Source: Candidatus Undinarchaeota archaeon (GTDB lineage Archaea; SpSt-1190; JASMDC01). Taken from it: a DNA stretch of 64,000 bases. The position numbers and the translations under genes were made by a program. Location: contig CAZFHY010000014.1 of assembly GCA_964519305.1 (NCBI GenBank), positions 1 to 64,000 on the forward strand, written 5' to 3'. Below, in pieces: positions 13,654 through 53,805 of the stretch. The notes beneath the pieces are model-generated. The model did no database searches. It was not told the DNA's origin and saw only the letters and a program-made list of their open reading frames with translations. The stretch's first letter is position 1; each line of letters begins with the position of its first letter.

Positions 13654-14790
13654 GTGGAAGCGGTAATACTCGCGGCAGGCCAGGGGACGCGGATGCGCCC
13701 CATCACGCCCGGTGTCCCCAAATCGCTCATCCCCGTAGCGAACCGTCCCTTCCTCTCACTTGTAGTGGACCGCGTACGTGCAGCTGGTGCAAAGCGTATA
13801 GTGGTCGTCGTCTCCCCGGAGAACCGTGACGCGGTCCAGGACGCGCTGGACGATGTAGATGTCGCGGTCCAGGAGGTCCCGCGCGGGACCGCTGACGCCG
13901 TTGCGGCCGCTGAGAACGCCGTTACTGATGACTTCCTTCTAGTAAACGGGGACACGCTCATCGAGGTGGACGACCTACGTCGCCTTGCGGGCGTATCAGG
14001 TTGTGCCATGGGGCTAGCGCGCGTGGATGATCCATCCGCCTACGGGATCGCCGAGGTCGTTGACGGTATCGTGATGGCCATCGATGAGAAGCCCGAGCAT
14101 CCCCAGGGCGACCTCGCCAACACCGGGACCTACCGTCTCACGCGGGCGGTATTCGATGCCATACGACGTACTCCGCTCTCGGAGCGGGGGGAGCTGGAGC
14201 TCACCACCTCGCTCATGCTACTGCACAAACAGGGGACGCCGGTGCACGCCTGCCTTATAGAGCGCGGATGGCGTGACTTCGGTGCGCCCTGGCACGTGCT
14301 GGACCTGAACGATGAGGCACTGGCCGTGCTCGAGGCCCCCACACCTCGGATCGACGGTGCAACCGTCAATGGTCCGGTCGTGCTCGGTACCGGTTGCACG
14401 GTAGGCGAGGACGCGATAATCCAGGGCCCGGCGGTGGTCGGCGATGGGTGCGAGATCGGTGCCGGGGCCCGTATCGGGCCGGGATCATCGGTGGGTGCGG
14501 GTTGTGTGCTGGGCGATGGGAGCGTTGTGGAGGGCTCGGTCCTTTGTGAGAGGGTCACCGTGGCAGAGGGCGCACAGGTGCTATCATCGGTGCTCGGGTC
14601 CGGGGCCACCATTGGATTGGCTGCCACCCTCCTGGACACAAACGACGACGGCTCGACCGTATGGATGACCGTGAAGGACCGCGACCTCGACACCGGGCGC
14701 ATGCGATGCGGCGCTCTGGTCGGATGTGGTGCCCTCGTGGACGACATGGAGGTCGTGTTCCCGGGGACGCTCGTGTTCGCGAGGGAATGA
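13654..14790 (+). CDS. Bifunctional sugar-1-phosphate nucleotidylyltransferase/acetyltransferase (archaeal GlmU-like)
   Basis: AVILAAGQGTRMRP..PK, EKP, SERGELE, C-terminal hexapeptide left-handed beta-helix repeats. Confidence 0.88.
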   Translation: MEAVILAAGQGTRMRPITPGVPKSLIPVANRPFLSLVVDRVRAAGAKRIVVVVSPENRDAVQDALDDVDVAVQEVPRGTADAVAAAENAVTDDFLLVNGDTLIEVDDLRRLAGVSGCAMGLARVDDPSAYGIAEVVDGIVMAIDEKPEHPQGDLANTGTYRLTRAVFDAIRRTPLSERGELELTTSLMLLHKQGTPVHACLIERGWRDFGAPWHVLDLNDEALAVLEAPTPRIDGATVNGPVVLGTGCTVGEDAIIQGPAVVGDGCEIGAGARIGPGSSVGAGCVLGDGSVVEGSVLCERVTVAEGAQVLSSVLGSGATIGLAATLLDTNDDGSTVWMTVKDRDLDTGRMRCGALVGCGALVDDMEVVFPGTLVFARE

Positions 14791-14821
14791 CCTTAAAAAA
14801 ACGTACGACCACTCCTTGAAC

Positions 14822-16339
14822 GTGGTCGTCTGCCTGATCAATCCACCGCAGTTGTCCACACCCTACCAGGTTACCGATGGCCTCATGCCGCCCTTGGGCA
14901 TCATGTCCATTTCCGCAGTTCTCAAGCAGGAGGGGTTCGATGTGCATGTCATCGATGCACCGGGCGAGGCAGCGACGAACCGGTACGTCCATGACGGAAC
15001 CCCGCTCCGCGGTCTCGGGTTCGAGACTATTCTCGAGCGCATCCCGGAGGGCACCAAGCTTATCGGCATCTCGGGCATCTTCTCCATGAACCATCGCGTC
15101 CTCATCGACCTTGCACGTTCCATCAAGGAGAGGTGCCCTGACACTATCGTGGTCGTTGGCGGCTCCCATGCGACAGCTGTACCCGAGCAGGTCATGCTCT
15201 CGGGGGACGTGGATATTGTGTGCCTGGGGGAGGGCGAGCGCTCGCTGCCCATGCTCTGTCATGCCTTGGAGCGGGATGGATGGAAGATAATCACCGAGGA
15301 CCTCGTGGACATCGCGGGGATCGCCTACCGAGACGGAGAGCGGGTCATCATCAATCAGGATGTGGCGCTAATCGACGACGTGGACGCTCTACCGTACCCT
15401 GACTGGGACAGCGTTCCCATGGAGACATACTACGCCTTCAAGGAGGGGAACGGGCCGGTGTGGACCGATAGATGGGTACCTCTGCTCTCCTCACGGGGCT
15501 GTCCGTACGACTGCGCCTTCTGTAGCACTCCGTCGATCTGGCGGCGTCGATGGCGTCCGCGTGATCCGGTCAAGCTCGTGGACGAGATAGCCTGGCTCCA
15601 GCGTGAGCACAACATCGAAGAGGTACACTTTGAGGACGAGAACATGAGCACCGATCCGGAGAGGCTGGAGACGTTCTGCGATGAACTGGTGCAGCGTAGC
15701 ATCGGCATAAGATGGCAGGCGGCGAACGGCATGCGTGCCCACGGCCTTGACAGGGAGCTGCTGGCCAAGATGGTCGCCTCCGGATGCACGAACCTCGTGC
15801 TCGCTCCCGAGTCAGGATCACGTTGTCTTCTCCAAGATGAACTGAACAAGGATATTGACCTGGACGAGATCGCGCGAGCGGGTCGGACCGCCCATGACCT
15901 GGGCCTGCGCACGTCCACATTCTTCATGATGGGCATGCCCGGAGAGACTCGAAGGGACGTTACACGGACACTGGCGTACCTCATGCGACTCGCGTTCGCA
16001 GGAGTTGACGAGTGCTCGATCTCACAGTTCGTGCCTCTTCCCGGTAGTCGTCTGTTCGACCGACTACGCTCCGAGGGACGGATCAAGCTGGATGATGCGT
16101 TCTACCGTTCGCTCACGTCCATGGGCGACCTTGCCTCGTCCCGCTCATGGTCCGAGCACTACTCCAACTGGGAGCTGAAGCTGTACCAGCTGATAGGCTA
16201 TGGCTTGTTCCACGTTACTCGGCTCGTTTTCCATCCCGTGAGCTCGGGACGGACCTTCGTCAACGTGCTCAAGGGACGACAGGAGCTGAAGAGCGAGCGT
16301 TTTCTCATTGCGAAGCTCCGCCGGTTCCGCGGCAGCTGA
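14822..16339 (+). CDS. B12-binding radical SAM protein
   Basis: LINPP..PPLG, VVGGSHAT, GEGE cobalamin domain, SRGCPYDCAFC (CX3CX2C); GTG about 25 nt after TTAAAAA. Confidence 0.9.
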   Translation: MVVCLINPPQLSTPYQVTDGLMPPLGIMSISAVLKQEGFDVHVIDAPGEAATNRYVHDGTPLRGLGFETILERIPEGTKLIGISGIFSMNHRVLIDLARSIKERCPDTIVVVGGSHATAVPEQVMLSGDVDIVCLGEGERSLPMLCHALERDGWKIITEDLVDIAGIAYRDGERVIINQDVALIDDVDALPYPDWDSVPMETYYAFKEGNGPVWTDRWVPLLSSRGCPYDCAFCSTPSIWRRRWRPRDPVKLVDEIAWLQREHNIEEVHFEDENMSTDPERLETFCDELVQRSIGIRWQAANGMRAHGLDRELLAKMVASGCTNLVLAPESGSRCLLQDELNKDIDLDEIARAGRTAHDLGLRTSTFFMMGMPGETRRDVTRTLAYLMRLAFAGVDECSISQFVPLPGSRLFDRLRSEGRIKLDDAFYRSLTSMGDLASSRSWSEHYSNWELKLYQLIGYGLFHVTRLVFHPVSSGRTFVNVLKGRQELKSERFLIAKLRRFRGS

Positions 16340-16342
16340 GCC

Positions 16343-18211
16343 TCAGGCATCCTGCCAGCAGTTACCGTCCTGACCGCACTCCGAATCCGGAGGACAACCG
16401 CATACGGGGCATGAGGGCACGAGCCCCTGTCCTCGTGTGCACAGGAAAGGCTTCACCTCGGAGCAGGCGCCGTGGAACGTACCATCGTCGCAAATGCGGT
16501 CCGGATCGTAGCATCGGTCGTCGGAGTAACACCCCATCCGGTCAGGACAACCGCATAGGGCGCAGTCGGGAATGAGCGAAATACTGTCCGGCTCGCAGAA
16601 ATGCTCACCTCCGGACGCGCAGGTGCCCACAGGTGTACCATCGGTGCAGGATTCGTACGGGTAGGGAACGAACCAACCGCGGATGCCCCCGGCGTCGTCC
16701 ATGGCCCCCGAAGCGCGTGCCGTGGTCTCGATGAACCTGCTCGCCCCGTCGCTGAACGTTACGTGTAGGAGGACGTGGTTGATGGTGCGGGGTGCGGACA
16801 GGCTGTCCGAGTCGACGTAGGCGAACTGCAGGCGCATGCCGTATTTGGCCTGTCCGTCCCCTGCCATGATGAGAGCGGCCATGAGCACAGCCGAGTCACG
16901 GCAGCTCCCCCTTCCCTCGGTGAGTGTCTCCAGGGGCCACTGCGCCGTCTCGTTGGTCACCTGGTAGATCATGAGCCGGTTCTTGAGGTTGTACACCTCG
17001 TCGATGAACTGTCGTGCCGTCCGGCCATCGGTAAGGTCGCCGATCACGTCGGTGAATGCCTCGGGTCGCACGAAAGTGCGGTAATCGGGCACAGTGAGGT
17101 TCTCCTCGGGGCAACCGGGGCAGGAGATTGCCCGATAGTACACGGGCCGGGGAGCCGATACCAGGGTACGGTAGGTGTCCACGGGCATGTTCCACACCAC
17201 GGTCTCTCCGAGGTTGTCGGGATACTGCCAGCGGATCATCCCCTCGTTTATGACGGTATGGAATCCCTCCGGCGTCGTCCCCTGCTGACTCTCGACGCAG
17301 TACGCGCGGTCGGTGTCGCACGCATGTTCTTGCGGGCAGTCAGCGTCCGTCCGGCAGCATCGTGTCCCCTCCAGGCAGCACACACCGGCCACGCAGTTCC
17401 CGCTCGCACACTCGCTCAGTGTCTGACAGTAGCCGCCATTGGGTGCAGGTGTGCCGGTCGGGTCCGCAGTAGGCCGGGTGGTCGGTGACGGCACGGCCCC
17501 GGATTCATCGCATGCGGACTCGGCGTGATCGCACATAGTCTCTCCTGGACAGTCACGGTCGTCCTGGCAGCAGGTTCTTCCTTCAGCACAGCACACGCCG
17601 TTGATACAGTTGTCGCTGAGACACTCGTCGTCCACGATACATGGCATGCCGTTTAGCCGCGTGGCCTGTGGCACCGTCGGCTCCGTTCCAGGTGTCGGTG
17701 AGGGGGTTTGACGGACGTCGGCAGTGCAATAGGAACGGTCAGTGTCGCATAGTTCCTCAGGACCGCAGTCGCTGTCGTCGAGGCAGCACGGACTTCCTGC
17801 GAGGCAGCATACCCCGTTCCTGCAGTTGCCGCTGAGGCAGATGTGGTCCCCTTCGCACATCATACCGTTGCGTCGTGGTGCAGGTGTTGGTGTCGGCGAT
17901 GGTGTTGGGCGGGGGATGCAGAATGACCGGCGGTCATCGCATCGCTCCACATAATCACAGTCATGGTCATTGCTACAACAGTCCCTTCCTTCAAGACAGC
18001 AGATGCCGTCATGGCAGTTACCACTGAGGCACTCGATGTCATCTGAGCACGGTGCACCAATGCCAAGGGCGGGAGGGAGTGATGTGGGTATCGCGGTGGA
18101 CGCGGGTTCCGAGCCTCCCAGCTCTTCAATGCACCCGGACATGAGGACGAGCGCCAGGACCAGAGCCGTGACGGTCCGCCCCAAGATCATCGGGATGAAT
18201 GTGTCCCCCAA
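16343..18211 (-). CDS. Cys-rich lipoprotein with transglutaminase-like domain
   Basis: Lipobox LMSGC; four 10-Cys repeats with PT linkers; GRGSCRDSAVL / NHVLL / FIETT triad region; two C-terminal C.DGT...CGC repeats. Confidence 0.8.
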   Translation of the reverse strand: MGDTFIPMILGRTVTALVLALVLMSGCIEELGGSEPASTAIPTSLPPALGIGAPCSDDIECLSGNCHDGICCLEGRDCCSNDHDCDYVERCDDRRSFCIPRPTPSPTPTPAPRRNGMMCEGDHICLSGNCRNGVCCLAGSPCCLDDSDCGPEELCDTDRSYCTADVRQTPSPTPGTEPTVPQATRLNGMPCIVDDECLSDNCINGVCCAEGRTCCQDDRDCPGETMCDHAESACDESGAVPSPTTRPTADPTGTPAPNGGYCQTLSECASGNCVAGVCCLEGTRCCRTDADCPQEHACDTDRAYCVESQQGTTPEGFHTVINEGMIRWQYPDNLGETVVWNMPVDTYRTLVSAPRPVYYRAISCPGCPEENLTVPDYRTFVRPEAFTDVIGDLTDGRTARQFIDEVYNLKNRLMIYQVTNETAQWPLETLTEGRGSCRDSAVLMAALIMAGDGQAKYGMRLQFAYVDSDSLSAPRTINHVLLHVTFSDGASRFIETTARASGAMDDAGGIRGWFVPYPYESCTDGTPVGTCASGGEHFCEPDSISLIPDCALCGCPDRMGCYSDDRCYDPDRICDDGTFHGACSEVKPFLCTRGQGLVPSCPVCGCPPDSECGQDGNCWQDA

Positions 18212-18218
18212 AGAATAT

Positions 18219-19202
18219 CTACCTATCGATAACCGGGATGGTCACCGCGTCACGCCATTTCCGATGGTATGAAAGCGCTGCCATGGCGCCGATGCACCCG
18301 CGCCGGCCTGTGATGGGTTCAAGACCGATTGAGGGGAGGGTGGCTGCTGTGCTGAACGCGTCCTCAACGCTCACCTCCGCTCCTCGTGCGGCCCGACCGA
18401 AGAGCGAGAGCGCGGGGGGAACGTCCCGGCCGTGGAGCCAGGCCATCCCGGTGTGCTCGGACAATGTCCATTTCTCTAAAAGGTCGCGGGCCGAGCTCAG
18501 GAGGGCGTCCCGCCCGTCCGGAGGTACGGCGAGGGTGATCGCAGTTGCCACGCAGTTACGTGTCCGGTGCGGGGCGCTGGGGTAGAGCTGGACGAGAGCA
18601 TGGTATAGATAACGACCTTGCCCTTTCTCCTGGAGCGTGCTCCCGAGGGTGTGGCAAAGGGACCATGTGGATCCCTCGTCCTCCGTGTCAGTGTCGTCGA
18701 CACCGAGCACGACCTTCTCCAGGAGCGGGAGCACGAGCGTGGCAGAGCTCTTTCGGGAGCCTCCCGGCGGCTCGTGGACCACGATGCGCAGGACTCCCTC
18801 AGCGAGCCCGCGGGAGAGGCATGCACCTACCCCGCCTCCGCCGAGACCGTGGTACGTGACGTGCACCTCCGCAGACTCCCTGTCCACGGACACTGCACCG
18901 ATGCCGGCAGGGCGGATGCCCGGGACCAGCTCAGGCTTGACATTTCCGGTACACAGGTCATATATGGCGAGCGTTCCCTCACGTAGTGCGCTGGTGACCA
19001 GCTTGCTGGCAGCGGGGTAGTGGTGGCCGGTCCATGCAGCCCCACCGAGGCAGCAGCCCTCTTCTACGAGCTCGACGAACGAAGGGTCCGTGGGATCGAC
19101 CGTGGCGGTTATCCGCTTCGTGGAGGCGGCCCAGGGGACATCCGCTACCAAGGCGCGCAGCTCCGAGGGCAGGTGTTCACCCGGTGCCAGCTCCAGTGCC
19201 AT
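18219..19202 (-). CDS. Methanogenesis marker protein 11 (DUF1743/TiaS-N-like)
   Basis: PW...VELVE..C.GG..W..HHY..SKLV, TYHGLGGGGVGA..RGLAEGV, VLGVDDTD..EGSTW, QLYP....T.NC, G.RG.IGA.AAL recognised as the Mmp11 family. Confidence 0.85.
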   Translation of the reverse strand: MALELAPGEHLPSELRALVADVPWAASTKRITATVDPTDPSFVELVEEGCCLGGAAWTGHHYPAASKLVTSALREGTLAIYDLCTGNVKPELVPGIRPAGIGAVSVDRESAEVHVTYHGLGGGGVGACLSRGLAEGVLRIVVHEPPGGSRKSSATLVLPLLEKVVLGVDDTDTEDEGSTWSLCHTLGSTLQEKGQGRYLYHALVQLYPSAPHRTRNCVATAITLAVPPDGRDALLSSARDLLEKWTLSEHTGMAWLHGRDVPPALSLFGRAARGAEVSVEDAFSTAATLPSIGLEPITGRRGCIGAMAALSYHRKWRDAVTIPVIDR

Positions 19203-19221
19203 TGCACCGACGCCGCTGACA

Positions 19222-19234
19222 AGCTTAATAAACA
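19222..19234. promoter_or_regulatory. Shared AT-rich TATA element for divergent mmp11/mtxX
   Basis: TTAATAAA at 19225-19232 lies about 23 nt from both ATGs (19202 minus, 19255 plus) in GC-rich DNA. Confidence 0.55.
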
Positions 19235-19254
19235 TGCGCCCGGAGTGGGAGGGC

Positions 19255-20103
19255 ATGGGGGGTCCCTTGTGGGAGTCGGTCACGGCCATGGCCCGAAAAA
19301 GACCGGCCAAGGTGGCCGTGGGCATGCGCCCTGGCGTATCCCCCGACGATCATGCTTTCCTTTCCGACGCCGAGCGGTTCCGCACCGAAGGATTCGGATG
19401 GCCCGTTGTCGTAGCGCCCCCAGGCGTCACGGTCCCTGACGAACTGGACGTTATCGAGGTCGAGGACCCTGAGCGGGAGCTTGTCCGTCTGCTGGCTAAT
19501 GGAGAGGTGGACGCCGCTGTCCGCGGTGCCATGGACGCAGCGACCACATTGGGCTACCTGAAGCGCGTCTTCAACGTCCAATCGCTCTGTCGCATCGCCC
19601 TACTCCGGGCCGCGAACGGAGAGGAGTTCTTCCTCGCGCCCGTGGGTGTGGACGAGGGTGCTGCGATGGTCAATCGTCTCGAGCTCGTGCGACGGTACAC
19701 CGAGCTGGCCGCAGTCCTTGGGATCGAGCCTAAGCTCTCGGTGCTCGCTGAGGGAAGGACGCAGGACCGTGGGCGAGGGCGGTCTCTGGAAGAGAGCCTT
19801 CACGAGGCCGAGCTCATCACCAAGCTGGCCCGGGAGCGTCTCGGAGTGACGGACGCCCGGATGACGGGCATCGTCATCGAGGAAGCTCTGGAGGATGGCC
19901 CTCGACTCGTCCTGGCTCCTAGCGGTCCCGCTGGGAACCTGGTGTTCCGGAGCCTTGTCTACCTGGGTGCCGGGACCGGTCTGGGGGCTCCTGCCTGCTC
20001 GCTACACCGCCCATTCGTGGATGTGTCCCGCGGACGGACGGACGTGCTCAACGCCATGGTCTTCGCCTCTGCATTGGTGGCCGGGGGCTGGGGTCGTGAG
20101 TGA
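19255..20103 (+). CDS. mtxX: Methanogenesis marker protein 4 / MtxX (Pta/PdxA-like fold)
   Basis: EVDAAVRG, RIALL...FFLAPVGVDEG, GR..D.GR, I.IEEA, AP.G..GNLVFRSL..LG, FVD.SR motifs. Confidence 0.85.
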   Translation: MGGPLWESVTAMARKRPAKVAVGMRPGVSPDDHAFLSDAERFRTEGFGWPVVVAPPGVTVPDELDVIEVEDPERELVRLLANGEVDAAVRGAMDAATTLGYLKRVFNVQSLCRIALLRAANGEEFFLAPVGVDEGAAMVNRLELVRRYTELAAVLGIEPKLSVLAEGRTQDRGRGRSLEESLHEAELITKLARERLGVTDARMTGIVIEEALEDGPRLVLAPSGPAGNLVFRSLVYLGAGTGLGAPACSLHRPFVDVSRGRTDVLNAMVFASALVAGGWGRE

Positions 20104-21622
20104 TCTAGCCCATTCGCTCGCCGAGACAGTGGCAACGCTCGGCTCACGTCGATGCATGTGCAATCCTGGTCAGGACGTCGTAGGTATTATCGACGCTTTG
20201 GAGGGGGTCATGGACACCACCATGTTCCCGACGGAGGTCGGGGCGGGATTCGCTGCTGACGGATATCGTCGTGTGGACCCGCGGGGGACGGACCTGCCCG
20301 TATGCGTCGTGACCGGGAAGGCCGGCGCCGCACACCTCGCCCTCCCCCTCGAGAACGCGTTCGCCGACAGCATCGGGATGCTGGCCGTGATGGGCAGGTG
20401 CAGAGTAGGACTTGCGCCAGTGAGCGTTGCGAAAGTTGACATAGGCGATGACGTCGACCATGGTCTGCCTAAAGTGGTGGACGCCTTCGAGCTCGCGTGC
20501 ACGCCCCCCCAGGGACCAGCTCTTGTCTCCCTCGATCGATCTGCCCAGTACGGACCGGCCGAGGCAGCGCCCCGTGAGCTCACATTCGAACCGAGAGGTC
20601 CAAATCCTCGTGATGTGGAGCTTGGCGCGGACATGATCGCCCGCGCTGAGCGACCGCTCCTTCTTCTGGGGAGCGGCTGCCTGTCAGGTGACAAGGAAGG
20701 GCTGCGCGAGGCAGTGAATGCCATCGGGATCCCCTGTGTGACCTCGATGCCCGCGCGGGGTGTTGTGGACGAGACACTTGAGCATTGCCTGGGCCCTGCA
20801 GGAATGCGCGGTACTACTGCTGCGAACGACGCCCTGCGCAAGGCCGATGTGGTCCTTGTCGCAGGCAGCTCCTTATCCCGACTGACGGTCCCTCCCGGAG
20901 CACTGGACGGTACACGGATATTCCGCGTGGACGTGCGGGGGAAGGCCGATGTGTGTGCGGACGCCGCGGAGTTCGTCACAGGGACGCTTCGTGCCGTCGG
21001 CGAACGTGAGCCGTGGGTCCGGGCGGACGGACATGTCACCTACGAGGGACCGTTCGCGTCTCCTGTCGCGGTATCAACGATCATGGACAACCTCCGTCCA
21101 GGCGACTGCCACGTCTACGATGTGGGGGCCTTCTCCATGTGGGCGTGTAATGCTGGTACAATCCGTGAGCCAGGAGCCTTCCTCATGCCCCACAACGTGT
21201 ACCCGCTCGGGTATGCCATCCCCGCCGCCATAGGGGCCCTCATGCGCGGGACCCGTCGACGGGTCGTTGCCGTATGCGGCGATGGTGGTTTCATCGCATC
21301 GCTGGCCACTCTCCCCAATGCAGCGGAGCACGACCTGACCATAGTAGTCCTGGACGACGGAGGGATGGACCTGATCCGCCAGCGACAGGATGAGCGGGGC
21401 CTCTCCACTTTGACCTCGAACCTCCCCCGTACCGATCCTATAGCGATGGCGCGGGGATGCGGTATCGAGTCAGTGCGTATCGACAGTCGTGAGGACCTCT
21501 CAGCCCAGCTGGAGGGCGCGGGGCATGGACCGCTTCTCGTCCACTGTCAGCTGGAACATGGACCCGGTGTCCTGGGCGCCCTGGAAGGCAACAATTTTAA
21601 AGTCAGGGATGGTTCGGGATGA
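20096..21622 (+). CDS. ThDP-dependent enzyme (acetolactate synthase/decarboxylase superfamily), divergent
   Basis: E.GAGFAADGY.R, PPQGPALV, AERPLLLLGSG, LGYAIPAAIGA, CGDGGF..VLDDGG ThDP motif; overlaps mtxX stop. Confidence 0.85.
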   Translation: MSDLAHSLAETVATLGSRRCMCNPGQDVVGIIDALEGVMDTTMFPTEVGAGFAADGYRRVDPRGTDLPVCVVTGKAGAAHLALPLENAFADSIGMLAVMGRCRVGLAPVSVAKVDIGDDVDHGLPKVVDAFELACTPPQGPALVSLDRSAQYGPAEAAPRELTFEPRGPNPRDVELGADMIARAERPLLLLGSGCLSGDKEGLREAVNAIGIPCVTSMPARGVVDETLEHCLGPAGMRGTTAANDALRKADVVLVAGSSLSRLTVPPGALDGTRIFRVDVRGKADVCADAAEFVTGTLRAVGEREPWVRADGHVTYEGPFASPVAVSTIMDNLRPGDCHVYDVGAFSMWACNAGTIREPGAFLMPHNVYPLGYAIPAAIGALMRGTRRRVVAVCGDGGFIASLATLPNAAEHDLTIVVLDDGGMDLIRQRQDERGLSTLTSNLPRTDPIAMARGCGIESVRIDSREDLSAQLEGAGHGPLLVHCQLEHGPGVLGALEGNNFKVRDGSG

Positions 21623-22634
21623 CGTGGTCAGTTCCACCCTGCGACTGAAAGCAGAGCTCCTCGCGTATGGCCGGATCCGCCTCCATCCCGGTGTTTCTAC
21701 GAAAGGTTTCTTATCCTCCCCATCCGCAGGGCCGGCAGCAGGTGAGCCCACTGTGTTCATCCGCATTGACGGTTCCCGAGTAAGACTCAGGCTCGATGAC
21801 AATTCGCGGATGGCCTTGACGGCCGGGATGACGCTCGAGCTTGACGGTGAAGTCATAGCCACAGGTGTCCAGATGGAGCCCGTCGTGGCACACTGTCCGG
21901 AACAGGTGTATACGACCGTTGTCCCGGGCTGCATCCACAATTGCGCATTCTGTGCTCTGGCGGGACATATCGCTAACGCTCGCTCCGAGGAGAAAATAAT
22001 ATCACGTATCGAGCGTGCCTTCGACTCGTCAGCGGTTGTCCCTGTAGCGCTAACGTCCGGTGTATCACCCGACGGATCCGAGGTGGACCTCTGTGTGAGT
22101 ATCGTGGAGCGTATCAAGGACAGATGGCGCGTGGTCCCTGTCGGCGTTTCGATATGTCTCAAGGACAAGAAGGACTTGAAGCGCCTCCAAGAGGCCGATT
22201 GCGACGAGATCAAGATCAACCTCGAGGTGGCCGATCGGGACATCCTACGTAGGGTGTGCCCACAGAAGGACAGGGCCCTCATCATCGACCTCATGAAAGA
22301 GGCCGTTGAGTTGTTCGGCCGGGGCCGTGTGTCCTCTAACATAATCCTGGGCCTTGGGGAGAGCGACCAGGCCGTGCTGGACACGATTGAGGAGCTCGCA
22401 GCAATAGGGGTCGTGGCCAACCTGCGACCTCTGGAGGTGACGCCCGCCATTGAGCCCGCCCTTGAGCGTGTCCTTGGGATAGGGTGTTTTGGTAGACCGC
22501 AGGCCGACCGGCTCATCCGTCTGGCCGAGAAGCAGTGCCAGATCCTTGCCAATCATCGTCTTTCAGCCTCAGGTATGGACACGATGTGCTCAGCATGCAC
22601 GGGATGCGATCTAGCCCCCGGACATGACCTGTGA
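21609..22634 (+). CDS. Biotin-synthase-related radical SAM protein (COG2516-like)
   Basis: LKAELL, SAGPAAG, HCPEQ, GCIHNCAFC (CX3CX2C), ALTSGV, C-terminal TMCSACTGCDL extra Cys cluster. Confidence 0.82.
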   Translation: MVRDDVVSSTLRLKAELLAYGRIRLHPGVSTKGFLSSPSAGPAAGEPTVFIRIDGSRVRLRLDDNSRMALTAGMTLELDGEVIATGVQMEPVVAHCPEQVYTTVVPGCIHNCAFCALAGHIANARSEEKIISRIERAFDSSAVVPVALTSGVSPDGSEVDLCVSIVERIKDRWRVVPVGVSICLKDKKDLKRLQEADCDEIKINLEVADRDILRRVCPQKDRALIIDLMKEAVELFGRGRVSSNIILGLGESDQAVLDTIEELAAIGVVANLRPLEVTPAIEPALERVLGIGCFGRPQADRLIRLAEKQCQILANHRLSASGMDTMCSACTGCDLAPGHDL

Positions 22635-22646
22635 GGTGGCCTGGAC

Positions 22647-23819
22647 ATGGCGTGCGAGCGGACGGACGATGAGGCTGCGTCACCGTACGCACGAAGGGCG
22701 CGGTTGAAGGGGCCGATCGAGCTTTATGATTCTACGCTCCGGGACGGCGAGCAGACCCCCGGCGTGTGCTTCAATCCAGACGAGAAGGTGGCGATAGCGC
22801 GTAAGCTAGACGCGATGGGCGTACCGATCATCGAGGCGGGATTCCCCGTTGTCTCGCCCAAGGAGGCCGAAGGCGTCAAGCGTATCGTTGAGGCAGGACT
22901 CGACGCACGACTCGTGGCGCTCTCGCGCCTCAGGGTAGAGGACATCGACGTCGCCGTTGATTGCGGTGTGGAGGGAGTGCTACTCTTTATCGCGAGCTCC
23001 GACCTTCACCTCGACCACAAGCTCCGCATGGACAGGGAAAAAGTACTGCAGGCCATCGATTCAAAGGTCGCCTATGCATGTGCCCGCGGGCTTCGCGTCC
23101 AGTTCACTCCGGAGGATGCTTCGCGAACAGATCCGGCCTTCCTCGCAGAAGTGCTCGCTTCAGCGGAGGCTGCGGGCGCCGATCGTGTGGGCGTGGCCGA
23201 CACCGTGGGCATCCTCGATCCGGCCGCGACCAGAAGGCTGGTGCGTACGGCCATGGACGCCGTGAAGGTGCCGGTCTCCGTCCATCTACATAATGACCTG
23301 GGTCTGGCGACCGCGAACACGCTCGCAGCTTTCGAGGAGGGGGCCATGGCAGCTGCCGTTACGGTGAACGGTATCGGCGAGCGGGCCGGCAACGCTTCCC
23401 TGGAAGAAGTGGCCACGGCGCTGGCCGTCCACTACGGTTACGACTGCGGCATCGATCTATCACAGCTCACTGAGCTCTCCGGGCTCGTCTCCAGGCTCAC
23501 GGGTATCCCTGTCCCGGGCAACAAAGCAGTGGTCGGTATCAACACATTCACGCACGAGTCCGGGATACATGTAGCAGCGGTGCTGGAGGAGCCCGCCACC
23601 TACGAACCGTTCCCTGCCGAGATGGTGGGAGGACGACGCCACCTTGTGTTCGGCAAACACAGTGGTCGCAAAGCCGTGCGCCACCTACTTCGAAAGGAGG
23701 GGCTCATCCATGATGCCGATGCCGTCGGTCGCTTACTGGCCCTGCTCAAGGACGTGGAAGGTCCGCTATCCCACCAGGACCTCTTGGAGCTTGCCAGGGA
23801 CGGGGGTCCAACGCGGTGA
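22647..23819 (+). CDS. aksA: Homocitrate synthase / AksA-type 2-oxoacid elongation synthase
   Basis: DSTLRDGEQTPG, HLHNDLGLATAN, GIGERAGN, HESGIH; 390 aa lacking the LeuA regulatory domain. The family is secure; the aksA label comes from context. Confidence 0.75.
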   Translation: MACERTDDEAASPYARRARLKGPIELYDSTLRDGEQTPGVCFNPDEKVAIARKLDAMGVPIIEAGFPVVSPKEAEGVKRIVEAGLDARLVALSRLRVEDIDVAVDCGVEGVLLFIASSDLHLDHKLRMDREKVLQAIDSKVAYACARGLRVQFTPEDASRTDPAFLAEVLASAEAAGADRVGVADTVGILDPAATRRLVRTAMDAVKVPVSVHLHNDLGLATANTLAAFEEGAMAAAVTVNGIGERAGNASLEEVATALAVHYGYDCGIDLSQLTELSGLVSRLTGIPVPGNKAVVGINTFTHESGIHVAAVLEEPATYEPFPAEMVGGRRHLVFGKHSGRKAVRHLLRKEGLIHDADAVGRLLALLKDVEGPLSHQDLLELARDGGPTR

Positions 23820-24820
23820 CGCGACCACTCGTTGTGGTCCGTGGTGACGGTGTGGGGCCCGAGGTCGTTGACGCGGCCCTTGCAGCTGCATCGCCTCTTC
23901 TGGTTGATTTCGAGCTCGTAGAGGCCCGGATGGGGCTGGCCTGCTTCAAGGATACAGGGAGCGCATTGCCGGCTGACACGCTCGATTCGATAAAGGAGGG
24001 GGGTCTCGCCCTCCTCGGCGCGGTCCAGACCCCGCCCAACGTCGATTACCGCTCACCGTTGCTCCGTATCAGACGAGAGCTTGATCTGTACGCCAACCTT
24101 CGTCCGGTGCGCGACCTCCGTGGCGGTCCTGTTGACCTGGTGGTCGTGCGCGAGAACCTCGAGTGCCTGTATGCGGGCCTGGAAGGTGGTAATGAGGACA
24201 CAGCCCTGGCGATACGAGTAATCACACGACAGAACTGCGAGAGGATATCGCGGTTCGCCCTGGAACGGGCCCAGGTTCGGCCGCTCGGCCATCGAATGGT
24301 GACCTGTGTGCACAAGGCCAACGTCCTTACACAGACCTGTGGTCTCTTCCGCGATACCTTCAACAAGGTGTCGGGCGACTACCCCGACGTACCCGTGAGC
24401 GAGCTACATGCGGACGTGTGCGCCATGAGGATGGTCATGGAGCCGGGCTCCCTCGACGTCCTGGTCACGACCAACATGTTCGGTGACATCCTCTCCGACC
24501 TGGCCGCTGGACTGGTCGGTGGCCTCGGTACGGTGCCTTCAGGCAATATCGGTGAGCGATGCGCAGTGTTTGAGCCCGTGCACGGGGCCGCGCCCGATAT
24601 CGCGGGGAAAGGTGTGGCCAATCCCGTCGCCGCCATCCTATCGCTCGCCATGCTGCTCGAGCATGCGGGTGACGTCGAGGAAGGTCGTCGCCTCACCCAC
24701 GCGGTCGAGTCATGCGTGCTGGCGGGAGAGACCACACCGGACCTCGGTGGTACCTTGAGCACCGATGCGGTCGCCAGGGCGGTCTTATCCCGGCTGGAGG
24801 CCGATCGTACGGAGGAGTGA
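23816..24820 (+). CDS. aksF: Homoisocitrate / beta-decarboxylating dehydrogenase (AksF-type)
   Basis: [54 protein letters not shown]; 4-nt overlap with aksA. Confidence 0.72.
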
Positions 24821-30256: not shown

Positions 30257-30283
30257 GTAGATAACCATGCATTCGTTCGGAAA

Positions 30284-33270
<2,987 letters not shown>

Positions 33271-33365
33271 ATTTCTTCCGAACGAATGCATGGCATCATC
33301 ATGACATGTGAGGTCATTACGCCGCCGGCCGCAAGGGGTTACCTTACGGACGGGATCAGGCTTGA

Positions 33366-33454
33366 TGGACCGGGCGGGATTTGAACCCGCGGCCATTGCC
33401 TTTCTTGTGATTTCTCATTGCAAGGGCAACACTCTTCCACTGAGCTACCGGCCC
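33366..33454 (-). tRNA. tRNA-Ala(TGC) with a 17-nt canonical intron (33402-33418)
   Basis: GGGCCGG/CCGGTCC acceptor with G3:U70, TTCAAAT T-loop; perfect BHB (CAA bulge, CTTG/CAAG helix, AAA bulge) at position 37/38; CCA not encoded. Confidence 0.95.
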
Positions 33455-33509
33455 TCGCGAGTGAAATGAGAGAGGACAATTTGGTGCCCGACTACAAGAG
33501 CCGAGTTCT

Positions 33510-34979
<1,470 letters not shown>

Positions 34980-36728: not shown

Positions 36729-37006
36729 TGACGACGTAATCGTCCCGGACCCTGTCTCCCTCGGGGAGATGGTGTTCTGAACTCAGGTTGATCGATAGAC
36801 CCAAGTCTGACCTTTGTTTACCCGTTAATAGAAACATGTCCCGCGCCACTGTCACGCGTTATCATGACACGCGTGTGCCAGTATGCCACGGAAAAGCTCA
36901 AATCTTCCGTTATTTCTCGAAATAAGCCGAAATATTCCGAGAATCCCGTTTTAACCTTTAAATATATATATAGTCCATGGGGGCGCACGCAAGGACTGTG
37001 GCGTAT

Positions 37007-38926
37007 ATGGGACTTCCTCTAGCGCGAAAGATACTCGAAGAGCACATCGTCGAGGGCAAGTACGTCATCGGCGAGGAGATCGGCATCAAGGTAGATCGGA
37101 CCCTCACCCAGGACGCGACGGGTACCATGGCGTACCTGCAGTTCGAGGCTCTGGGCATACCACGTGTCAAGACGGAGCTGTCGGTGAGCATCATCGACCA
37201 CAACACGCTTCAGAACGACTTCAGGAATGCTGATGACCATAAGTACCTGCAGAGCGTGGCGGCCAAGTATGGCATCAAGCTCTCAAAGGCCGGGAACGGC
37301 ATCTGCCACCAGGTACACCTTGAGCGGTTCGCCAAGACCGGACGCACGCTCATTGGTTCCGACAGCCACACACCTACCGCAGGTGGGGTGGGTATGATCG
37401 CCATCGGTGCGGGCGGTCTCGACGTGGCCGTCGCCATGGGTGGCGCTCCCTTCTATATGAAGGCGCCTAAGATAATGGGCATCAAGCTCACTGGCGAGCT
37501 CCAGCCCTTCGTATCGGGTAAGGACGTCATCCTCGAAGTGCTGCGCCGTATCGATGTCAAGGGAGGCGTGGGCTACATCCTAGAATACTTCGGACCCGGG
37601 GTAAAGTCGCTCGACGTGCCCTCGCGTGCGACCATCACAAATATGGGTGCCGAGACCGGGGCTACTACTTCCATATTCCCTTCCGACGATGTGACGCGGG
37701 AGTTCTTCAAGCAGCAGGGTAGGGAGGGCGAGTGGTTCCCGCTGGGCGCGGACCCTGACGCCGAGTACGATGAGGTCATGGAGATCGACCTATCCGCTGT
37801 CGAGCCATTGGCCGCGTGCCCACACAGCCCTGGCAAAGTGGTGCCTGTCACCGAGCTCGCCGGGATGAACGTGGACCAGGTCGCAATCGGCTCATGTACC
37901 AACTCCTCCTACCGCGATCTCATGACCGTCGCGGGGATGCTTAAGGGAAAGAAGGTCGATCCGACGACCTCTCTCAGCATCTCCCCTGGCTCCCGCCAGG
38001 TCCTCGTGACCCTGTCGCGTAACGGTACGATGGCCGACATCGTAGAGTCCGGCGCTCGTATCCTCGAGTGCACCTGTGGTCCCTGCATCGGCATGGGCCA
38101 GGCCCCGTCGACCGACGGCATCCGCGTGTGCACGTTCAACCGTAACTTCTTCGGTCGTACCGGGACCAAGTCAGCGAGCGGTTATCTGGTGAGCCCCGAG
38201 ACCGCTGCTGCTACGGCCATCAATGGTGTGATGACTGATCCTCGCACAATGGGCGAGCTCCCGACGTTCGACTACCCGGAGCTGTTCCCCATCGACGATT
38301 CGATGGTGCTCGAGCCATCCGACGATCCGGACAGCGTGGAGATCATCCGCGGGCCGAACATCAAATCCCTTCCAAAGAAGGATCCCCTGCCCGGCGTGCT
38401 CGATGGCAAGGTCCTCATCAAACTGGAGGACAACATCACTACCGACCACATAATGCCCGCAGGTTCCAAGATCCTGCCTCTGCGCAGCAACGTGCCCGAG
38501 ATATCCAAGTACGTGTTCGAGCAGATCGATCCGGACTTCCACGCGCGTGCCCTTGAGATGGGCGGCGGATTCATCATCGGTGGGGGGAACTACGGTCAAG
38601 GATCGTCCCGCGAGCACGCAGCGCTCGCACCGATGTACCTGGGCGTTAAGGGCGTGATCGTCAAGTCGTTCGCACGCATTCACCTGGCGAACCTGATCAA
38701 CTTCGGGATCATCCCGCTGGAGTTCGTAGATGCCGCGGACTATGACGCCATAGAACCTGGCGATATCCTGTCCATCGATGTTAGCGACCTTAGTGGCGAT
38801 CTTGTCCTGAAGAACACGACCAAGGGTAAGGAAATCCCCGTGCGCCACCACATGAGCGAGCGGGACAGAGCCATCCTCAAGGCCGGCGGAAAGCTGCCGT
38901 TCACCGCACAGGGGGGGGTGGCCTGA
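37007..38926 (+). CDS. Aconitate hydratase (single-chain, about 640 aa)
   Basis: TQDATG, DHN, GICHQ, GSDSHT, IGSCTN, CGPCIGMG, FNRNF, DNITTDHI, NYGQGSSREHA. Confidence 0.93.
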   Translation: MGLPLARKILEEHIVEGKYVIGEEIGIKVDRTLTQDATGTMAYLQFEALGIPRVKTELSVSIIDHNTLQNDFRNADDHKYLQSVAAKYGIKLSKAGNGICHQVHLERFAKTGRTLIGSDSHTPTAGGVGMIAIGAGGLDVAVAMGGAPFYMKAPKIMGIKLTGELQPFVSGKDVILEVLRRIDVKGGVGYILEYFGPGVKSLDVPSRATITNMGAETGATTSIFPSDDVTREFFKQQGREGEWFPLGADPDAEYDEVMEIDLSAVEPLAACPHSPGKVVPVTELAGMNVDQVAIGSCTNSSYRDLMTVAGMLKGKKVDPTTSLSISPGSRQVLVTLSRNGTMADIVESGARILECTCGPCIGMGQAPSTDGIRVCTFNRNFFGRTGTKSASGYLVSPETAAATAINGVMTDPRTMGELPTFDYPELFPIDDSMVLEPSDDPDSVEIIRGPNIKSLPKKDPLPGVLDGKVLIKLEDNITTDHIMPAGSKILPLRSNVPEISKYVFEQIDPDFHARALEMGGGFIIGGGNYGQGSSREHAALAPMYLGVKGVIVKSFARIHLANLINFGIIPLEFVDAADYDAIEPGDILSIDVSDLSGDLVLKNTTKGKEIPVRHHMSERDRAILKAGGKLPFTAQGGVA

Positions 38927-40191
38927 TGGCGCAGCGAGCTATTCGCGAGGTCGACGCCCGACGGCTCCTGGCTGCCCATCTCGGAGGAGGGTTCCCCTTC
39001 CCGGACAAGGCTGTCCAGGTCACGGCCGAGACCGACTGGGACAAGCTGGCCAAAGACCATCCCTGGCTCGACTCCGAGAAGCTCGTGTGCAAGCCGGACC
39101 AGCTCTTCGGCAAGCGCGGGAAGCACAACCTCATCCTTCTGGACGCTACACTCGCCGAGCTCAAAGCTTGGGTGAATGAGCGATTGGGCACAGAGGTCAC
39201 CATCGGCAAGGCGCCTGGGGTGCTGACCCACTTCCTCATCGTGCCCTTCACGCCGCACGACGGGGAGATGGAGTACTACGCGGCCATCAAGAGCGAGCGG
39301 GATGGCGATGTCATACTTGTCTCCCCCAAGGGGGGCATCTTCGTGGAAGAGCATTGGGACCAGGTCGAGCAGACCCACGTACCTATCGATGCCGATATCG
39401 GCTCACTCGAAATAGGCATGCCCTCGGGCATCCCTGCCGAACATCACGAGCAGGTGACCGGGTTCATCAGAGCGCTCTACAAGTTCTACGCGGACCTGCA
39501 ACTGGCGTTCTTGGAGCTCAATCCCTACACTCTGGTCGATGGCGTACCCATCGCGCTGGACATGCGCATCAAGCTCGACGACACCGCTGCCTTCGAGGCA
39601 GGGCGCAAGTGGGGGGACATCGAGTTCCCCGTGCCCTTCGGCCGGACCACCTCTGCAGAGGAGTCCTACATCAAGGAGATGGACGAGAAGAGCGGTGCAT
39701 CGCTCAAGCTTACCCTGCTCAACACCAAGGGTCGCGTGTGGACCATGGTGGCTGGCGGTGGAGCGTCCGTCATCTATGCTGACACGATCTCGGACCTCGG
39801 TTACGGGAAGGAGATGGCCAATTATGGCGAATACTCCGGTAATCCCAAGACCGATGAGACCTACGAGTACGCCAAGACCATCCTCGACCTCATGACCCGG
39901 GAGAAGGATCCTGAGGGCAGGGATAAGGTCCTCCTCATCGGCGGCGGTATCGCCAACTTCACCGACGTGGCAAAGACCTTCACCGGTATCATCAAGGCGC
40001 TCAAGGAGTACGCACCCAAGCTCAAGGAGACGGGTGTTCGCATCTACGTCAGGCGCGGCGGCCCGAACTACCGCTATGGGCTCAAGCTCATGCGCGAGCT
40101 CGGTCAGGAGATGGGAGTGCCCATTGAGGTGTACGGTCCCGAGACCCACATGACACGCATCGTGTCCATGGCACTTGGAGGTGAGCAATAA
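38926..40191 (+). CDS. aclB: ATP-citrate lyase, beta (ATP-grasp) subunit
   Basis: KPDQLFGKRGK, KLDDTA, SLKLTLLN..GRVWTMVAGGGASVIY, NYGEYSG, GIANFT, RRGGPNY. Confidence 0.93.
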   Translation: MAQRAIREVDARRLLAAHLGGGFPFPDKAVQVTAETDWDKLAKDHPWLDSEKLVCKPDQLFGKRGKHNLILLDATLAELKAWVNERLGTEVTIGKAPGVLTHFLIVPFTPHDGEMEYYAAIKSERDGDVILVSPKGGIFVEEHWDQVEQTHVPIDADIGSLEIGMPSGIPAEHHEQVTGFIRALYKFYADLQLAFLELNPYTLVDGVPIALDMRIKLDDTAAFEAGRKWGDIEFPVPFGRTTSAEESYIKEMDEKSGASLKLTLLNTKGRVWTMVAGGGASVIYADTISDLGYGKEMANYGEYSGNPKTDETYEYAKTILDLMTREKDPEGRDKVLLIGGGIANFTDVAKTFTGIIKALKEYAPKLKETGVRIYVRRGGPNYRYGLKLMRELGQEMGVPIEVYGPETHMTRIVSMALGGEQ

Positions 40192-42020: not shown

Positions 42021-42065
42021 GTGATTGAGAACGACATCAGACCTAATGCGACATTGTCAAGTTAA

Positions 42066-44309
<2,244 letters not shown>

Positions 44310-44419
44310 AACTGAAGAAAGGGGCAAACGGACGGGATACGAAAGGGCGGCGTCCGGGGGGGCGTCGCCCGACACCCTTCATAGTAGATATAAAACTGCA
44401 CGCCCGTCACCATGATGCC

Positions 44420-44827
44420 ATGGACGCAGACAGGTACCGTAACGACTACGGTAACAACGTCGCTGTTATCGGTGCATCGTCCAAGCGGGACCGTTACTCC
44501 AACAAGGCAGTCAGAGCGCTGGTGGAGGCAGGCTACAACGTCTTTCCCATACACCCGAAAGAGACAGAGATCGAGGGACTCCGGGTCTTTCCCGACATCA
44601 AGTCGGTCAATGGTGATATTGACCTGGTCTCCATCTACCTCAATCCCCAGGTCGTGCTCCGGTCCGGACTAGTTGGGCAGTTGGAGGGGCGAGGGATCAA
44701 GGCCGCTATTCTGAATCCAGGGACACAGGATCCCGCTCTGATCAAAGAGCTCGAGGGCAGCAGTATCATCGTGCTCCAAGAGTGCACTCTCGTCAATGGG
44801 CTCGGCCGGAGCCCTTCAGAATTCTGA
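44420..44827 (+). CDS. CoA-binding protein (YccU-like)
   Basis: VAVIGAS...RYS, GY.VFPIHP, IDLVSIYL, LNPG, ECTLV. Confidence 0.85.
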   Translation: MDADRYRNDYGNNVAVIGASSKRDRYSNKAVRALVEAGYNVFPIHPKETEIEGLRVFPDIKSVNGDIDLVSIYLNPQVVLRSGLVGQLEGRGIKAAILNPGTQDPALIKELEGSSIIVLQECTLVNGLGRSPSEF

Positions 44828-44884
44828 TATCGATCCCGGCCTGAACCGCTACCTATATATACACCCTGCGGGCGCCGGCGATGT

Positions 44885-53804: not shown

Positions 53805-53805
53805 C

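Follow-up and report, generated by a model that had tools for sequence, protein, structure and literature searches.

What do methanogenesis marker genes do in an archaeon that shows no sign of making methane? The question is raised by a stretch of 64,000 nucleotides, here called the window (positions 1 to 64,000 of contig CAZFHY010000014.1, GenBank assembly GCA_964519305.1, deposited as Candidatus Undinarchaeota archaeon), in which the genes of methanogenesis markers 11 and 4, mmp11 and mmp4 (also mtxX), lie side by side. An initial annotation of the window had taken the two markers as part of a methanogen cofactor toolkit that is kept without methyl-coenzyme M reductase (Mcr). This gene pattern as such stands, and has been published in general terms, but the operon context of the markers had been missed: they belong to one operon-like unit with genes of an AksA-like and an AksF-like enzyme, a thiamine-diphosphate (TPP) enzyme and a protein of the radical S-adenosylmethionine (SAM) type. 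From the gene content and synteny it could well be, and we regard the matter as evenly balanced, that this unit serves the synthesis of coenzyme B (7-mercaptoheptanoyl-threonine phosphate) or of a closely similar compound, with Mmp11, Mmp4, the TPP enzyme and the radical SAM protein as late enzymes, and that the resulting thiol would serve heterodisulfide reductases (Hdr) and not Mcr.

The unit of marker and aks-type genes

The mmp11 gene stands head-to-head with an operon on the other strand that runs from mmp4 through the genes of the TPP enzyme and the radical SAM protein to aksA and aksF, and the ends of these five genes overlap or abut (Table 1). All six genes are under purifying selection and show no sign of decay. 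Relative to the copies in a second genome of the same genus, dN/dS is 0.117 for mmp11, 0.098 for mmp4, 0.169 for the TPP enzyme, 0.192 for the radical SAM protein, 0.115 for aksA and 0.129 for aksF, with 0.090 for the nearby housekeeping protein GlmM; these ratios rest on one comparison, as the related loci L006 and L032 and contig C58 of the same-genus genome (G006) are 100% identical over 3876 bases and count as one relative.

Table 1. Positions of the unit and of other features in the window (aa, amino acids; ORF, open reading frame)
Feature	Position	Strand	Remarks
B12-binding radical SAM gene	14726-16339	+	
Cys-rich protein	16343-18211	-	622 aa
mmp11 (methanogenesis marker 11)	18219-19235	-	338 aa (P0001); likely start M31 = 19235; ORF open up to 19325
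mmp4/mtxX (methanogenesis marker 4)	19255-20103	+	phosphotransacetylase-like fold; first gene of the + strand operon; 282-aa database product (P0214); ORF open from 19090, start uncertain (ATG at 19234, 19255, 19288 or 19324)
TPP enzyme, acetolactate synthase (ALS)-like, divergent	20096-21622	+	probable start near 20096; ORF open from 19895; overlaps the end of mmp4
Radical SAM protein	21609-22634	+	Pfam Radical_SAM; CIHNCAFC motif, C-terminal CxxCxxC; ORF open from 21489
aksA-like, homocitrate/isopropylmalate synthase family	22647-23819	+	390 aa; Pfam HMGL-like and HCS_D2; without LeuA regulatory domain
aksF-like, homoisocitrate/isopropylmalate dehydrogenase family	23816-24820	+	start overlaps the aksA stop
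rRNA operon	30276-34979	-	23S 30276-33281, spacer tRNA 33366-33454, 16S 33511-34979; full-length archaeal Rfam matches
Tricarboxylic acid (TCA)-type gene run	36977-46471		
Trp operon, full	48808-55104		
Long ORF	58754-62848	+	1364 aa

Mmp11 passes the model of its family (TIGR03280, methan_mark_11) with 273.8 bits, or 274.4 in a second scan, at a cut-off of 255.8. Its N-terminal domain, of unknown fold, has about 170 residues and includes the conserved stretch GLGGxGVGA; the C-terminal one is a kinase domain of TiaS type (TCKD), to which Pfam gives a partial match (TiaS_TCKD). A profile made from 34 Mmp11 homologues matches the TiaS structures 3amt, 3au7 and 4rvz in the PDB with E values of 3e-13 to 9e-13, in the kinase domain only, and the structure 3u02 with 2.5e-21. 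The GxDDTD motif of the kinase domain is retained, D180, T182 and D183 being invariant and D181 present in at least 90% of the 34 homologues, and T190 aligns with Thr18 of TiaS. An identity of Mmp11 with TiaS itself was rejected: the TCKD match is partial, Pfam detects none of the FLD, OB and zinc-ribbon parts in the window's protein, and there is no match to the TiaS model NF040849 at E<=1e-5. When the N-terminal 172 residues were used for an Atlas search, nothing beyond the protein's own family came up, at scores of at most 0.80, and the family is rare, with 146 representative clusters among 1.84 billion proteins.

The Mmp4 protein reaches 167.8-169.3 bits against TIGR03270 (Mmp4/MtxX), below the curated cut-off of 190, and matches the solved MtxX structure 9nzy (MTH_231) over residues 46-257 with E=4.4e-30; its relatives carry the PTA_PTB domain (PF01515). 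It is clearly homologous to MtxX and, on these scores, is best described as a divergent relative and not as a certified family member. Of the two identities given by the initial annotation, that of marker 11 is thus confirmed by its cut-off, whereas that of marker 4 misses its cut-off but agrees with the structure match.

The TPP enzyme has the Pfam domains TPP_enzyme_N, M and C and matches acetolactate synthases in the PDB at E=1.4e-26 or weaker. It falls far short of the equivalog cut-off for acetolactate synthase large subunits, the best NCBIfam ALS model giving 145.4 bits at a cut-off of 738; IlvC is missing from the genome, which also has no second ALS-family gene. The radical SAM protein resembles the MSMEG_0568, LipS2 and BioB families (NF045502, 76.3 bits, cut-off 125; TIGR04043, 63.2 bits), and has no PDB match at E<=0.001. 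It could be taken neither for the lipoyl synthase LipS2 nor for BioB, as it misses both equivalog cut-offs by far (64 bits, or 62 in the genome scan, against 270 for LipS2; 47 against 225 for BioB).

The AksA-like enzyme scores 442.3 bits with TIGR02090 (cut-off 484.75) and 394.1 with nifV homocitrate synthase (cut-off 462.9), and is the only member of its family in the genome. The AksF-like enzyme reaches 367.5 bits with TIGR02088 (cut-off 409.8) and 351.2 with AksF2_Meth (cut-off 540). The aksD and aksE genes are outside the cluster, as the initial annotation had said, and equivalents of HacA/HacB type lie on contig C16, where a homoaconitase-type large subunit and a small subunit are encoded together with a second dehydrogenase, the one paralogue of AksF. 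The large subunit passes the hacA_fam model (557.2 bits, cut-off 385.7) and fails HacA_Meth (497.2, cut-off 550). On the same contig, an ORF that matches Hcp of type VI secretion (PF05638, 98.3 bits; L016:6620-7306, minus strand) lies near two 714-aa ORFs without a family.

Several features around the unit deserve mention in their own right. The gene that adjoins mmp11 on the far side encodes a protein with four Cys-rich repeats and Pro/Thr linkers that matches no Pfam or NCBIfam family; in the same-genus genome it is 78% identical and there, too, adjoins mmp11. The B12-binding radical SAM gene next to it has more than 30 paralogous tblastn matches across the genome, an unusually large family. 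Between the end of mmp4 and the rRNA operon there are 10.2 kb, in accordance with the distance of about 10 kb that had been noted initially, and the Rfam scores of the operon are 2711.4 bits for LSU_rRNA_archaea, 1508.2 for SSU_rRNA_archaea and 61.1 for the tRNA. ARAGORN calls this spacer tRNA, of 89 bases, as tRNA-Cys(GCA), the length of which suggests an intron or a miscalled anticodon; archaeal 16S-23S spacer tRNAs are usually tRNA-Ala. The long ORF towards the end of the window has no NCBIfam match at E<=1e-10.

Recurrence of the neighbourhood

A locus search with a 12-row alignment gave 80 metagenome loci that encode an Mmp11 homologue, and their neighbours were counted by tblastn with the window proteins. 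AksF-like and aconitase-family genes were each found in 32 of the loci, AksA-like genes in 13, TPP enzymes in 11, radical SAM proteins in 10 and Mmp4 in 4. For a count by lineage, the 824 ORFs within 8 kb of mmp11 were clustered and the Mmp11 proteins were grouped at 60% identity; two of the 17 groups are tandem paralogues in the same loci, which leaves 16 lineages. In 10 of these lineages, or in 9 of 15 when the window's own lineage is set aside, mmp11 has one or more genes for Aks enzymes, a TPP enzyme, Mmp4 or a radical SAM protein of the window's type no further than 8 kb away; an Aks gene is found there in 8 of 16, and a radical SAM gene beside mmp11 in 5 of 16. The chance of the 8 lineages was put at 6e-8, a rough estimate in which each genome is taken to have 2000 genes, 5 of them aks genes. 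The linked genes are mostly co-directional, with gaps of 0-50 bases. Not included in the counts are SufS-like and FAD-oxidoreductase neighbours, the latter being without a homologue in this genome, and a second radical SAM family near Mmp11 (14 loci), which was dropped as an AmmeMemoRadiSam enzyme.

Locus L075 reads AksA-Mmp4-AksD-AksE-TPP-Mmp11-FAD oxidoreductase, with both markers over their cut-offs (Mmp4 198.3, cut-off 190; Mmp11 331.1, cut-off 255.8), and L035 has the same order with a TnpB-like insertion. In L104 the order is Mmp11-Mmp11-radical SAM-IOR-like TPP (TPP2)-AksA-AksD-AksE-DUF7714-AksF, while L086 reads AksA-TPP-Mmp11, L098 reads Mmp11-AksA-TPP, and L090 and L084 both read Mmp11-radical SAM. 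In the largest lineage, the neighbour of Mmp11 is a HacA_Meth protein over its cut-off (594.1 bits, cut-off 550). In the Mmp11 tree, the AksA-TPP context is anchored with Methanofastidiosum, the AksA-Mmp4-AksDE-TPP context with Methanosuratincola, and the context of radical SAM and TPP2 with the Methanosarcinales. The Mmp11-like genes of loci L007 and L008 have no related neighbour genes.

There is also variation on this theme. An IOR-alpha-like TPP enzyme takes the place of the ALS-like one in two lineages, and tandem Mmp11-family genes head the clusters of L104 (6290-8120) and L110 (688-2608), where one copy passes the cut-off with 342.3 bits and the other fails it with 195.3. In the Methanosarcinales-like clusters (L104:13025-13951 and L110), a DUF7714 gene stands between AksE and AksF; its homologue in the present genome, 29.5% identical, is encoded on another contig (C20:780-1652), and DUF7714 is one more candidate for the pathway. 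In three lineages (L063:10964-12145, L075:10912-12081, L098:13711-14940), the Mmp11 or the TPP gene is followed by that of a GMC/FAD-type oxidoreductase of about 390 aa, which may act there as the reductive partner when the thiol is formed.

The relation of Mmp11 to methanogenesis can be seen in a sample of 401 Thermoplasmatota genomes, in which an Mmp11 match was counted at E<=1e-20. The 61 genomes with McrA all have Mmp11, compared with 15 of the 340 genomes that have no McrA match. In five of these 15, with genome sizes of 3.6-5.0 Mb and no completeness stated, Mmp11 is over its cut-off, and three of the five, one of them a single contig of 3.58 Mb, have AksA directly beside it. Mmp4 and ComD are each found in four of the five, with neither in the single-contig genome, and HdrB homologues in all five, four of them over the cut-off.

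These data bear on another reading of the cluster, by which 2-oxosuberate or a shorter 2-oxoacid would be turned into a different product, for example pimelate on the way to biotin or a dithiol like lipoate, with the radical SAM protein inserting sulfur and Mmp11 and Mmp4 joining the acid to an amine. In methanogens, 2-oxosuberate feeds biotin as well. The best named matches of the radical SAM protein, LipS2 and BioB, would fit such a product although both are weak, and it is the sole LipS2-like match in the genome. In addition, one of the McrA-less Thermoplasmatota (locus L117, G207:C203, 9086-12483) has the order AksA-Mmp11-LipS1, with LipS1, once more a sulfur-inserting radical SAM protein adjoining Mmp11, at 281.4 bits (cut-off 230) and a lipoate ligase nearby, and the IOR-alpha-like enzyme of the two lineages mentioned would yield an acyl-CoA. 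However, the Thermoplasmatota numbers show that Mmp11 tracks a need specific to methanogens and not biotin or lipoate, the radical SAM gene is beside Mmp11 in the smaller part of the lineages only, and its LipS2 and BioB scores are far under the cut-offs. A product of this kind is therefore rather improbable.

The host genome and the origin of the cluster

The genome comprises 3.63 Mb in 42 contigs and is estimated to be 99.83% complete with 4.29% contamination; the contig that includes the window has 111 kb. Neither McrA (TIGR03256) nor McrB (TIGR03257) has a match in it, whereas both control methanogens match; McrG was outside the search. McrA is also without a match in the same-genus genome, which is 98% complete. 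For the activation component A2, the best score is 126.8 bits at a cut-off of 517.1, from generic ABC ATPases only. No match was found in the genome for CfbD (marker 13, TIGR03282, F430 synthesis), for Mer, or for the coenzyme M proteins ComA (PF02679) and ComD (TIGR03845), with ComE and cysteate synthase outside the search. What is present, by Pfam, are Mtd, FwdABCD-type genes and a full CdhABCDE set (CO dehydrogenase/acetyl-CoA synthase) followed by HdrA/MvhD-type fusions, and in addition two Ftr genes over the cut-off; FwdB has 517 bits (cut-off 327.8). HdrA (with MvhD), HdrB and HdrC are encoded, with HdrB at 338.2 bits and thus slightly below its cut-off of 345.15, and further Hdr-like modules are a second HdrBC-like pair (HdrB2C2) and a gene resembling HdrD. 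Genes for MtrA and MtrH occur as two pairs (C26:3121-4595, L019; C9:30756-32302, L018), with the other Mtr subunits not seen nearby; MtrH reaches 347.7 bits (cut-off 271.4) and MtrA 151 (cut-off 249). One of the pairs is followed by a MetE-like (Meth_synt_2) gene, the other by methanogenesis marker 14 (336.5 bits, cut-off 274), and MtrA and MtrH may, together with the MetE-like protein, form a route from methyl-tetrahydromethanopterin to homocysteine.

Judged by this gene content, the organism, taken here as free-living and marine, is a Wood-Ljungdahl archaeon without methane metabolism, and the initial view that the markers stand in a non-methanogen holds. Among the genes to which that annotation had pointed, those of HdrABC were found and McrA and McrB were not, for the Mtr complex there are the two MtrA-MtrH pairs, with MtrA under its cut-off, and ComA and ComD are missing. 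It could still be asked whether this is a methanogen or an alkane oxidiser after all, with mcr genes that were not assembled. The number of contigs would leave room for that, and most of the upper pathway is present together with Hdr. Yet the loss would have to include McrA and McrB from a nearly complete genome and McrA again from its relative, and with A2 under its cut-off and CfbD, ComA, ComD and Mer missing, five independent assembly losses are unlikely; a published commentary on this lineage, in its available part, also reports that mcr is missing (PMC11481508). We consider this explanation the most remote of all.

If the genes do not serve methanogenesis, the Aks-type enzymes might have a role in amino acid synthesis. 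A leucine/valine operon was rejected as an explanation. IlvC has only a 27.7-bit match in the genome, while 14 of 14 control genomes have it, and with IlvC missing and no second gene of isopropylmalate synthase or ALS type, a leucine/valine role is unlikely. For lysine, LysA is not found in either genome of the genus, and no LysX passes in this genome, the best score being 210.9 bits at a cut-off of 275.6. The gene concerned, on contig C3, was rejected as part of a LysW-type lysine cluster, since it is a RimK/MptN-type ligase gene beside FwdB. In the same-genus genome there is a LysX over the cut-off (G006:C64:18057-18875, L112; 352.9 bits), but its contig has no nucleotide or close protein counterpart here, and may be a contamination in a bin that is estimated to be 6% contaminated. 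The organism retains a full Trp operon but may depend on an outside supply of branched-chain amino acids and lysine, unless it makes them by other routes.

The window also contains, 12 kb downstream of the aks genes, the TCA-type gene run. Its genes are those of a fused aconitase (950 bits), of a protein like the beta part of succinyl-CoA ligase, of an ATP-citrate-lyase type protein in which a ligase-alpha-like part is fused to one resembling citryl-CoA lyase, and of a monomeric NADP isocitrate dehydrogenase (1284 bits), together with a small CoA-ligase-like ORF. Possibly the run is a TCA module that works reductively or in both directions.

From such observations it might be argued that the markers are leftovers of an ancestral toolkit that have taken up unrelated jobs, that their adjacency to the aks genes is without meaning, and that the Aks-type enzymes serve lysine synthesis via 2-aminoadipate, or work as Re-citrate synthase and isocitrate dehydrogenase together with the products of the TCA-type genes. 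Remnant markers have been documented in Wood-Ljungdahl archaea without Mcr, the authors stating in the part of their paper available to us that the function cannot be inferred from the genomic context (PMC9635834). With LysA absent from both genomes, lysine must have another source. The AksA and AksF proteins are below all cut-offs, isocitrate dehydrogenase models match AksF with 308 bits, and the genes for aconitase, the citryl-CoA-lyase-type pair and the monomeric isocitrate dehydrogenase are close by at 36977-44309. Against this it has to be held that the adjacency recurs, tight and co-directional, in most of the Mmp11 lineages and in several orders, that the constraint is similar on all six genes, and that isocitrate oxidation is already covered by the monomeric enzyme. 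The lysine route via 2-aminoadipate is not supported: no LysX passes here, the best candidate has the other explanation given above, and the good LysX of the same-genus genome has no counterpart. A leftover with unrelated jobs is thus an unlikely explanation of the unit, although the most serious of the alternatives.

As to the placement of the organism, the public labels of the genus conflict, 'Candidatus Undinarchaeales archaeon' standing against 'Methanopyri archaeon', and SpSt-1190 is also in use. The database phylum holds 17 species, of which this one and the same-genus one have genomes of 3.6-3.8 Mb, the other 15 only 0.6-1.2 Mb. The 16S rRNA is 74-79% identical to that of the 10 other genomes of the database phylum that have one. 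The DPANN-like nature that had been proposed initially agrees with the phylum and class placement in the database but not with the size of the genome and the low 16S identity.

As to its origin, the cluster could in principle be foreign, either by a mis-binned or chimeric contig or by a recent transfer from a methanogen. Neither marker is found in the 15 other genomes of the phylum, the G+C content of the cluster (0.635) is above that of the genome (0.596), and the estimated contamination is not zero. But the contig on which the cluster lies also holds the rRNA operon and genes for GlnA, GlmM, GlmU and Trp synthesis, and in the same-genus genome the same gene order is found, collinear over about 15 kb with 82-85% nucleotide identity. 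The 4-mer distance of the cluster to the genome is at the 77th percentile of random genome windows. Outside the genus, the closest Mmp11 shares only 42% identity, or 46% in one metagenome locus, and in a quick tree of 54 rows the window's protein groups with two unnamed proteins (SH-aLRT 96), outside the clades of Methanosarcinales, Methanocella, Methanofastidiosum, Methanosuratincola and one Thermoplasmata sequence. A foreign cluster is accordingly very improbable, and the collinearity and 4-mer composition speak against the chimeric contig that the initial annotation had considered. There is no sign of a recent transfer, and the gene tree that this annotation had called for speaks against a recent origin from methanogens, while vertical descent and ancient transfer are indistinguishable from these data.

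Candidate late steps of coenzyme B synthesis and comparison with known systems

Coenzyme B is made from 2-oxoglutarate, which is extended in three elongation rounds to 2-oxosuberate (PMC3087415). By this known Aks chemistry, AksA, AksF and the HacA/HacB-type enzymes of contig C16 would form 2-oxosuberate, from which the ALS-like TPP enzyme, as a candidate 2-oxosuberate decarboxylase, would remove CO2 to give 7-oxoheptanoate. The radical SAM protein with its second Cys motif might then, in this lineage, be a candidate, though a weak one, for the introduction of the thiol. For the next step TiaS offers a model, in which ATP activates a carbonyl that is then attacked by an amine. In a similar manner, Mmp11 would use ATP to activate the carboxylate of 7-mercaptoheptanoate, and Mmp4/MtxX, with its phosphotransacetylase fold, may have a part in the acyl or phosphoryl transfer that leads to the threonine amide and its phosphate. 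The product would serve disulfide reductases of HdrABC type and not methane formation. Gene content, synteny, selection and homologies are observed, and the enzymatic roles beyond Aks as well as the role for Hdr are our inference from them.

That coenzyme B may be the purpose of the cluster is one claim, the complete scenario goes further. It says that Mmp11, Mmp4, the ALS-like or IOR-like TPP enzyme and the MSMEG_0568-type radical SAM protein are the missing late enzymes of coenzyme B synthesis, and that coenzyme B or an analogue is a redox thiol of Hdr outside methane metabolism, in archaea with no sign of Mcr from at least two phyla, and here without genes for F430 and coenzyme M. This combination is put forward tentatively and has to be regarded as somewhat less probable than the coenzyme B cluster itself. 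As HdrABC is present together with two further Hdr-like modules, a thiol/disulfide role without Mcr is possible; the initial annotation had suggested an Hdr thiol cycle dependent on coenzyme B, for which the modules are in place.

A number of points weigh against this assignment to coenzyme B. In the window, Mmp4 and both Aks enzymes are below their cut-offs, in the latter case below every equivalog and subfamily cut-off, and with LysA absent these enzymes might be used in a lysine route via 2-aminoadipate. In the metagenomes, Mmp4 is rarely near Mmp11, as the four loci mentioned show, the largest lineage comprises 41 loci that are kin and had to be counted as one, and six of the 16 lineages have no linkage, five of them with loci of up to 10 kb and one with 18.7 kb. 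The window's TPP enzyme is only 25% and its radical SAM protein only 20-36% identical to those beside Mmp11 elsewhere, to which they are joined by single linkage only. The single-contig Thermoplasmatota genome has Mmp11 beside AksA and yet no Mmp4. The classical route to 7-mercaptoheptanoate, as deduced from labelling, reportedly needs no radical SAM enzyme. With ComA and ComD missing, coenzyme M, which is normally the partner in the disulfide, could not be made by any archaeal route known so far, and without Mcr, the only known enzyme that forms the heterodisulfide, the oxidised thiol would need another source. Finally, the neighbours of mtxX in cultured methanogens are, in the available part of a structure paper, given as uppS, mmp12, mmp2 and mtxAH (PMC12978539).

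The conserved neighbourhood nevertheless provides four concrete candidates for the late steps of coenzyme B synthesis, i.e. the decarboxylation of 2-oxosuberate, the formation of the thiol, the threonine amide and the phosphate, and these candidates can be tested in model methanogens. Coenzyme B synthesis is particular to methane-cycling archaea and might therefore be targeted in order to mitigate methane. Should coenzyme B indeed be the product of the cluster, the cofactor would have a use beyond methanogenesis, and this would bear on how methanogenic ancestors gave rise to non-methanogenic and to host-dependent archaea.

That this lineage has methanogenesis genes without mcr is already in print in general form. 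A paper of 2024 in mBio on DPANN archaea of oxygen-deficient zones describes two SpSt-1190 genomes of about 4 Mb with 'nearly complete pathways for methanogenesis' (PMC10936187), and the commentary cited above adds that these genomes are without mcr and may use the genes otherwise (PMC11481508). The nearest named record, labelled Undinarchaeales, carries the isolate name used in the mBio paper. Like those genomes and the ones with remnant markers, the present genome has Wood-Ljungdahl genes of the tetrahydromethanopterin type, MtrAH, Hdr and markers but no Mcr; unlike here, the annotation in the available parts of these papers is at the level of modules, and an aksA/aksF operon and its recurrence are not described there. 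In a literature search, with subscription journals and supplements not covered, no paper turned up in which the late steps are assigned or in which marker 11 or MtxX is connected with the synthesis of coenzyme B. New, as far as this search reaches, is the conserved neighbourhood of aks and marker genes, which makes two orphan markers and two unnamed enzymes candidates for late steps of coenzyme B synthesis.

Compared with coenzyme B synthesis in methanogens, the similarity consists in the AksA- and AksF-like enzymes of the window and the HacA/HacB-like ones on C16, families that recur beside Mmp11 in methanogen-type contigs. The difference is that the aks genes here share a unit with the genes of the TPP enzyme, the radical SAM protein and the two markers, in a host without Mcr, CfbD and ComA/ComD. 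The fold of MtxX is that of a phosphate acyltransferase, its conserved basic cleft was seen to bind an acidic C-terminus, and the 2026 structure paper, in its available part, leaves the function unresolved (PMC12978539). Mmp4 of the window is a clear sequence relative of that protein (9nzy, E=4.4e-30), but unlike in the surveyed methanogens its gene heads an aks operon and is not next to uppS, mmp2, mmp12 or mtxAH. With TiaS, the tRNA(Ile2) 2-agmatinylcytidine synthetase, Mmp11 shares in its C-terminal half a homologous kinase domain, including GxDDTD and the position of Thr18; the N-terminal domain is different, and only the chemistry of ATP activation and amine attack has been borrowed as a model. 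Another archaeon with the acetyl-CoA pathway and without Mcr is Met12, a non-methanogenic member of the Methanocellales, which, according to the available part of its description, also lacks ComA-E, AksA-F, CfbA-E, Mtr and Hdr (PMC11176372). In contrast to Met12, the present genome has retained MtrAH, several Hdr modules and markers 4, 11 and 14 along with the Aks-type cluster.

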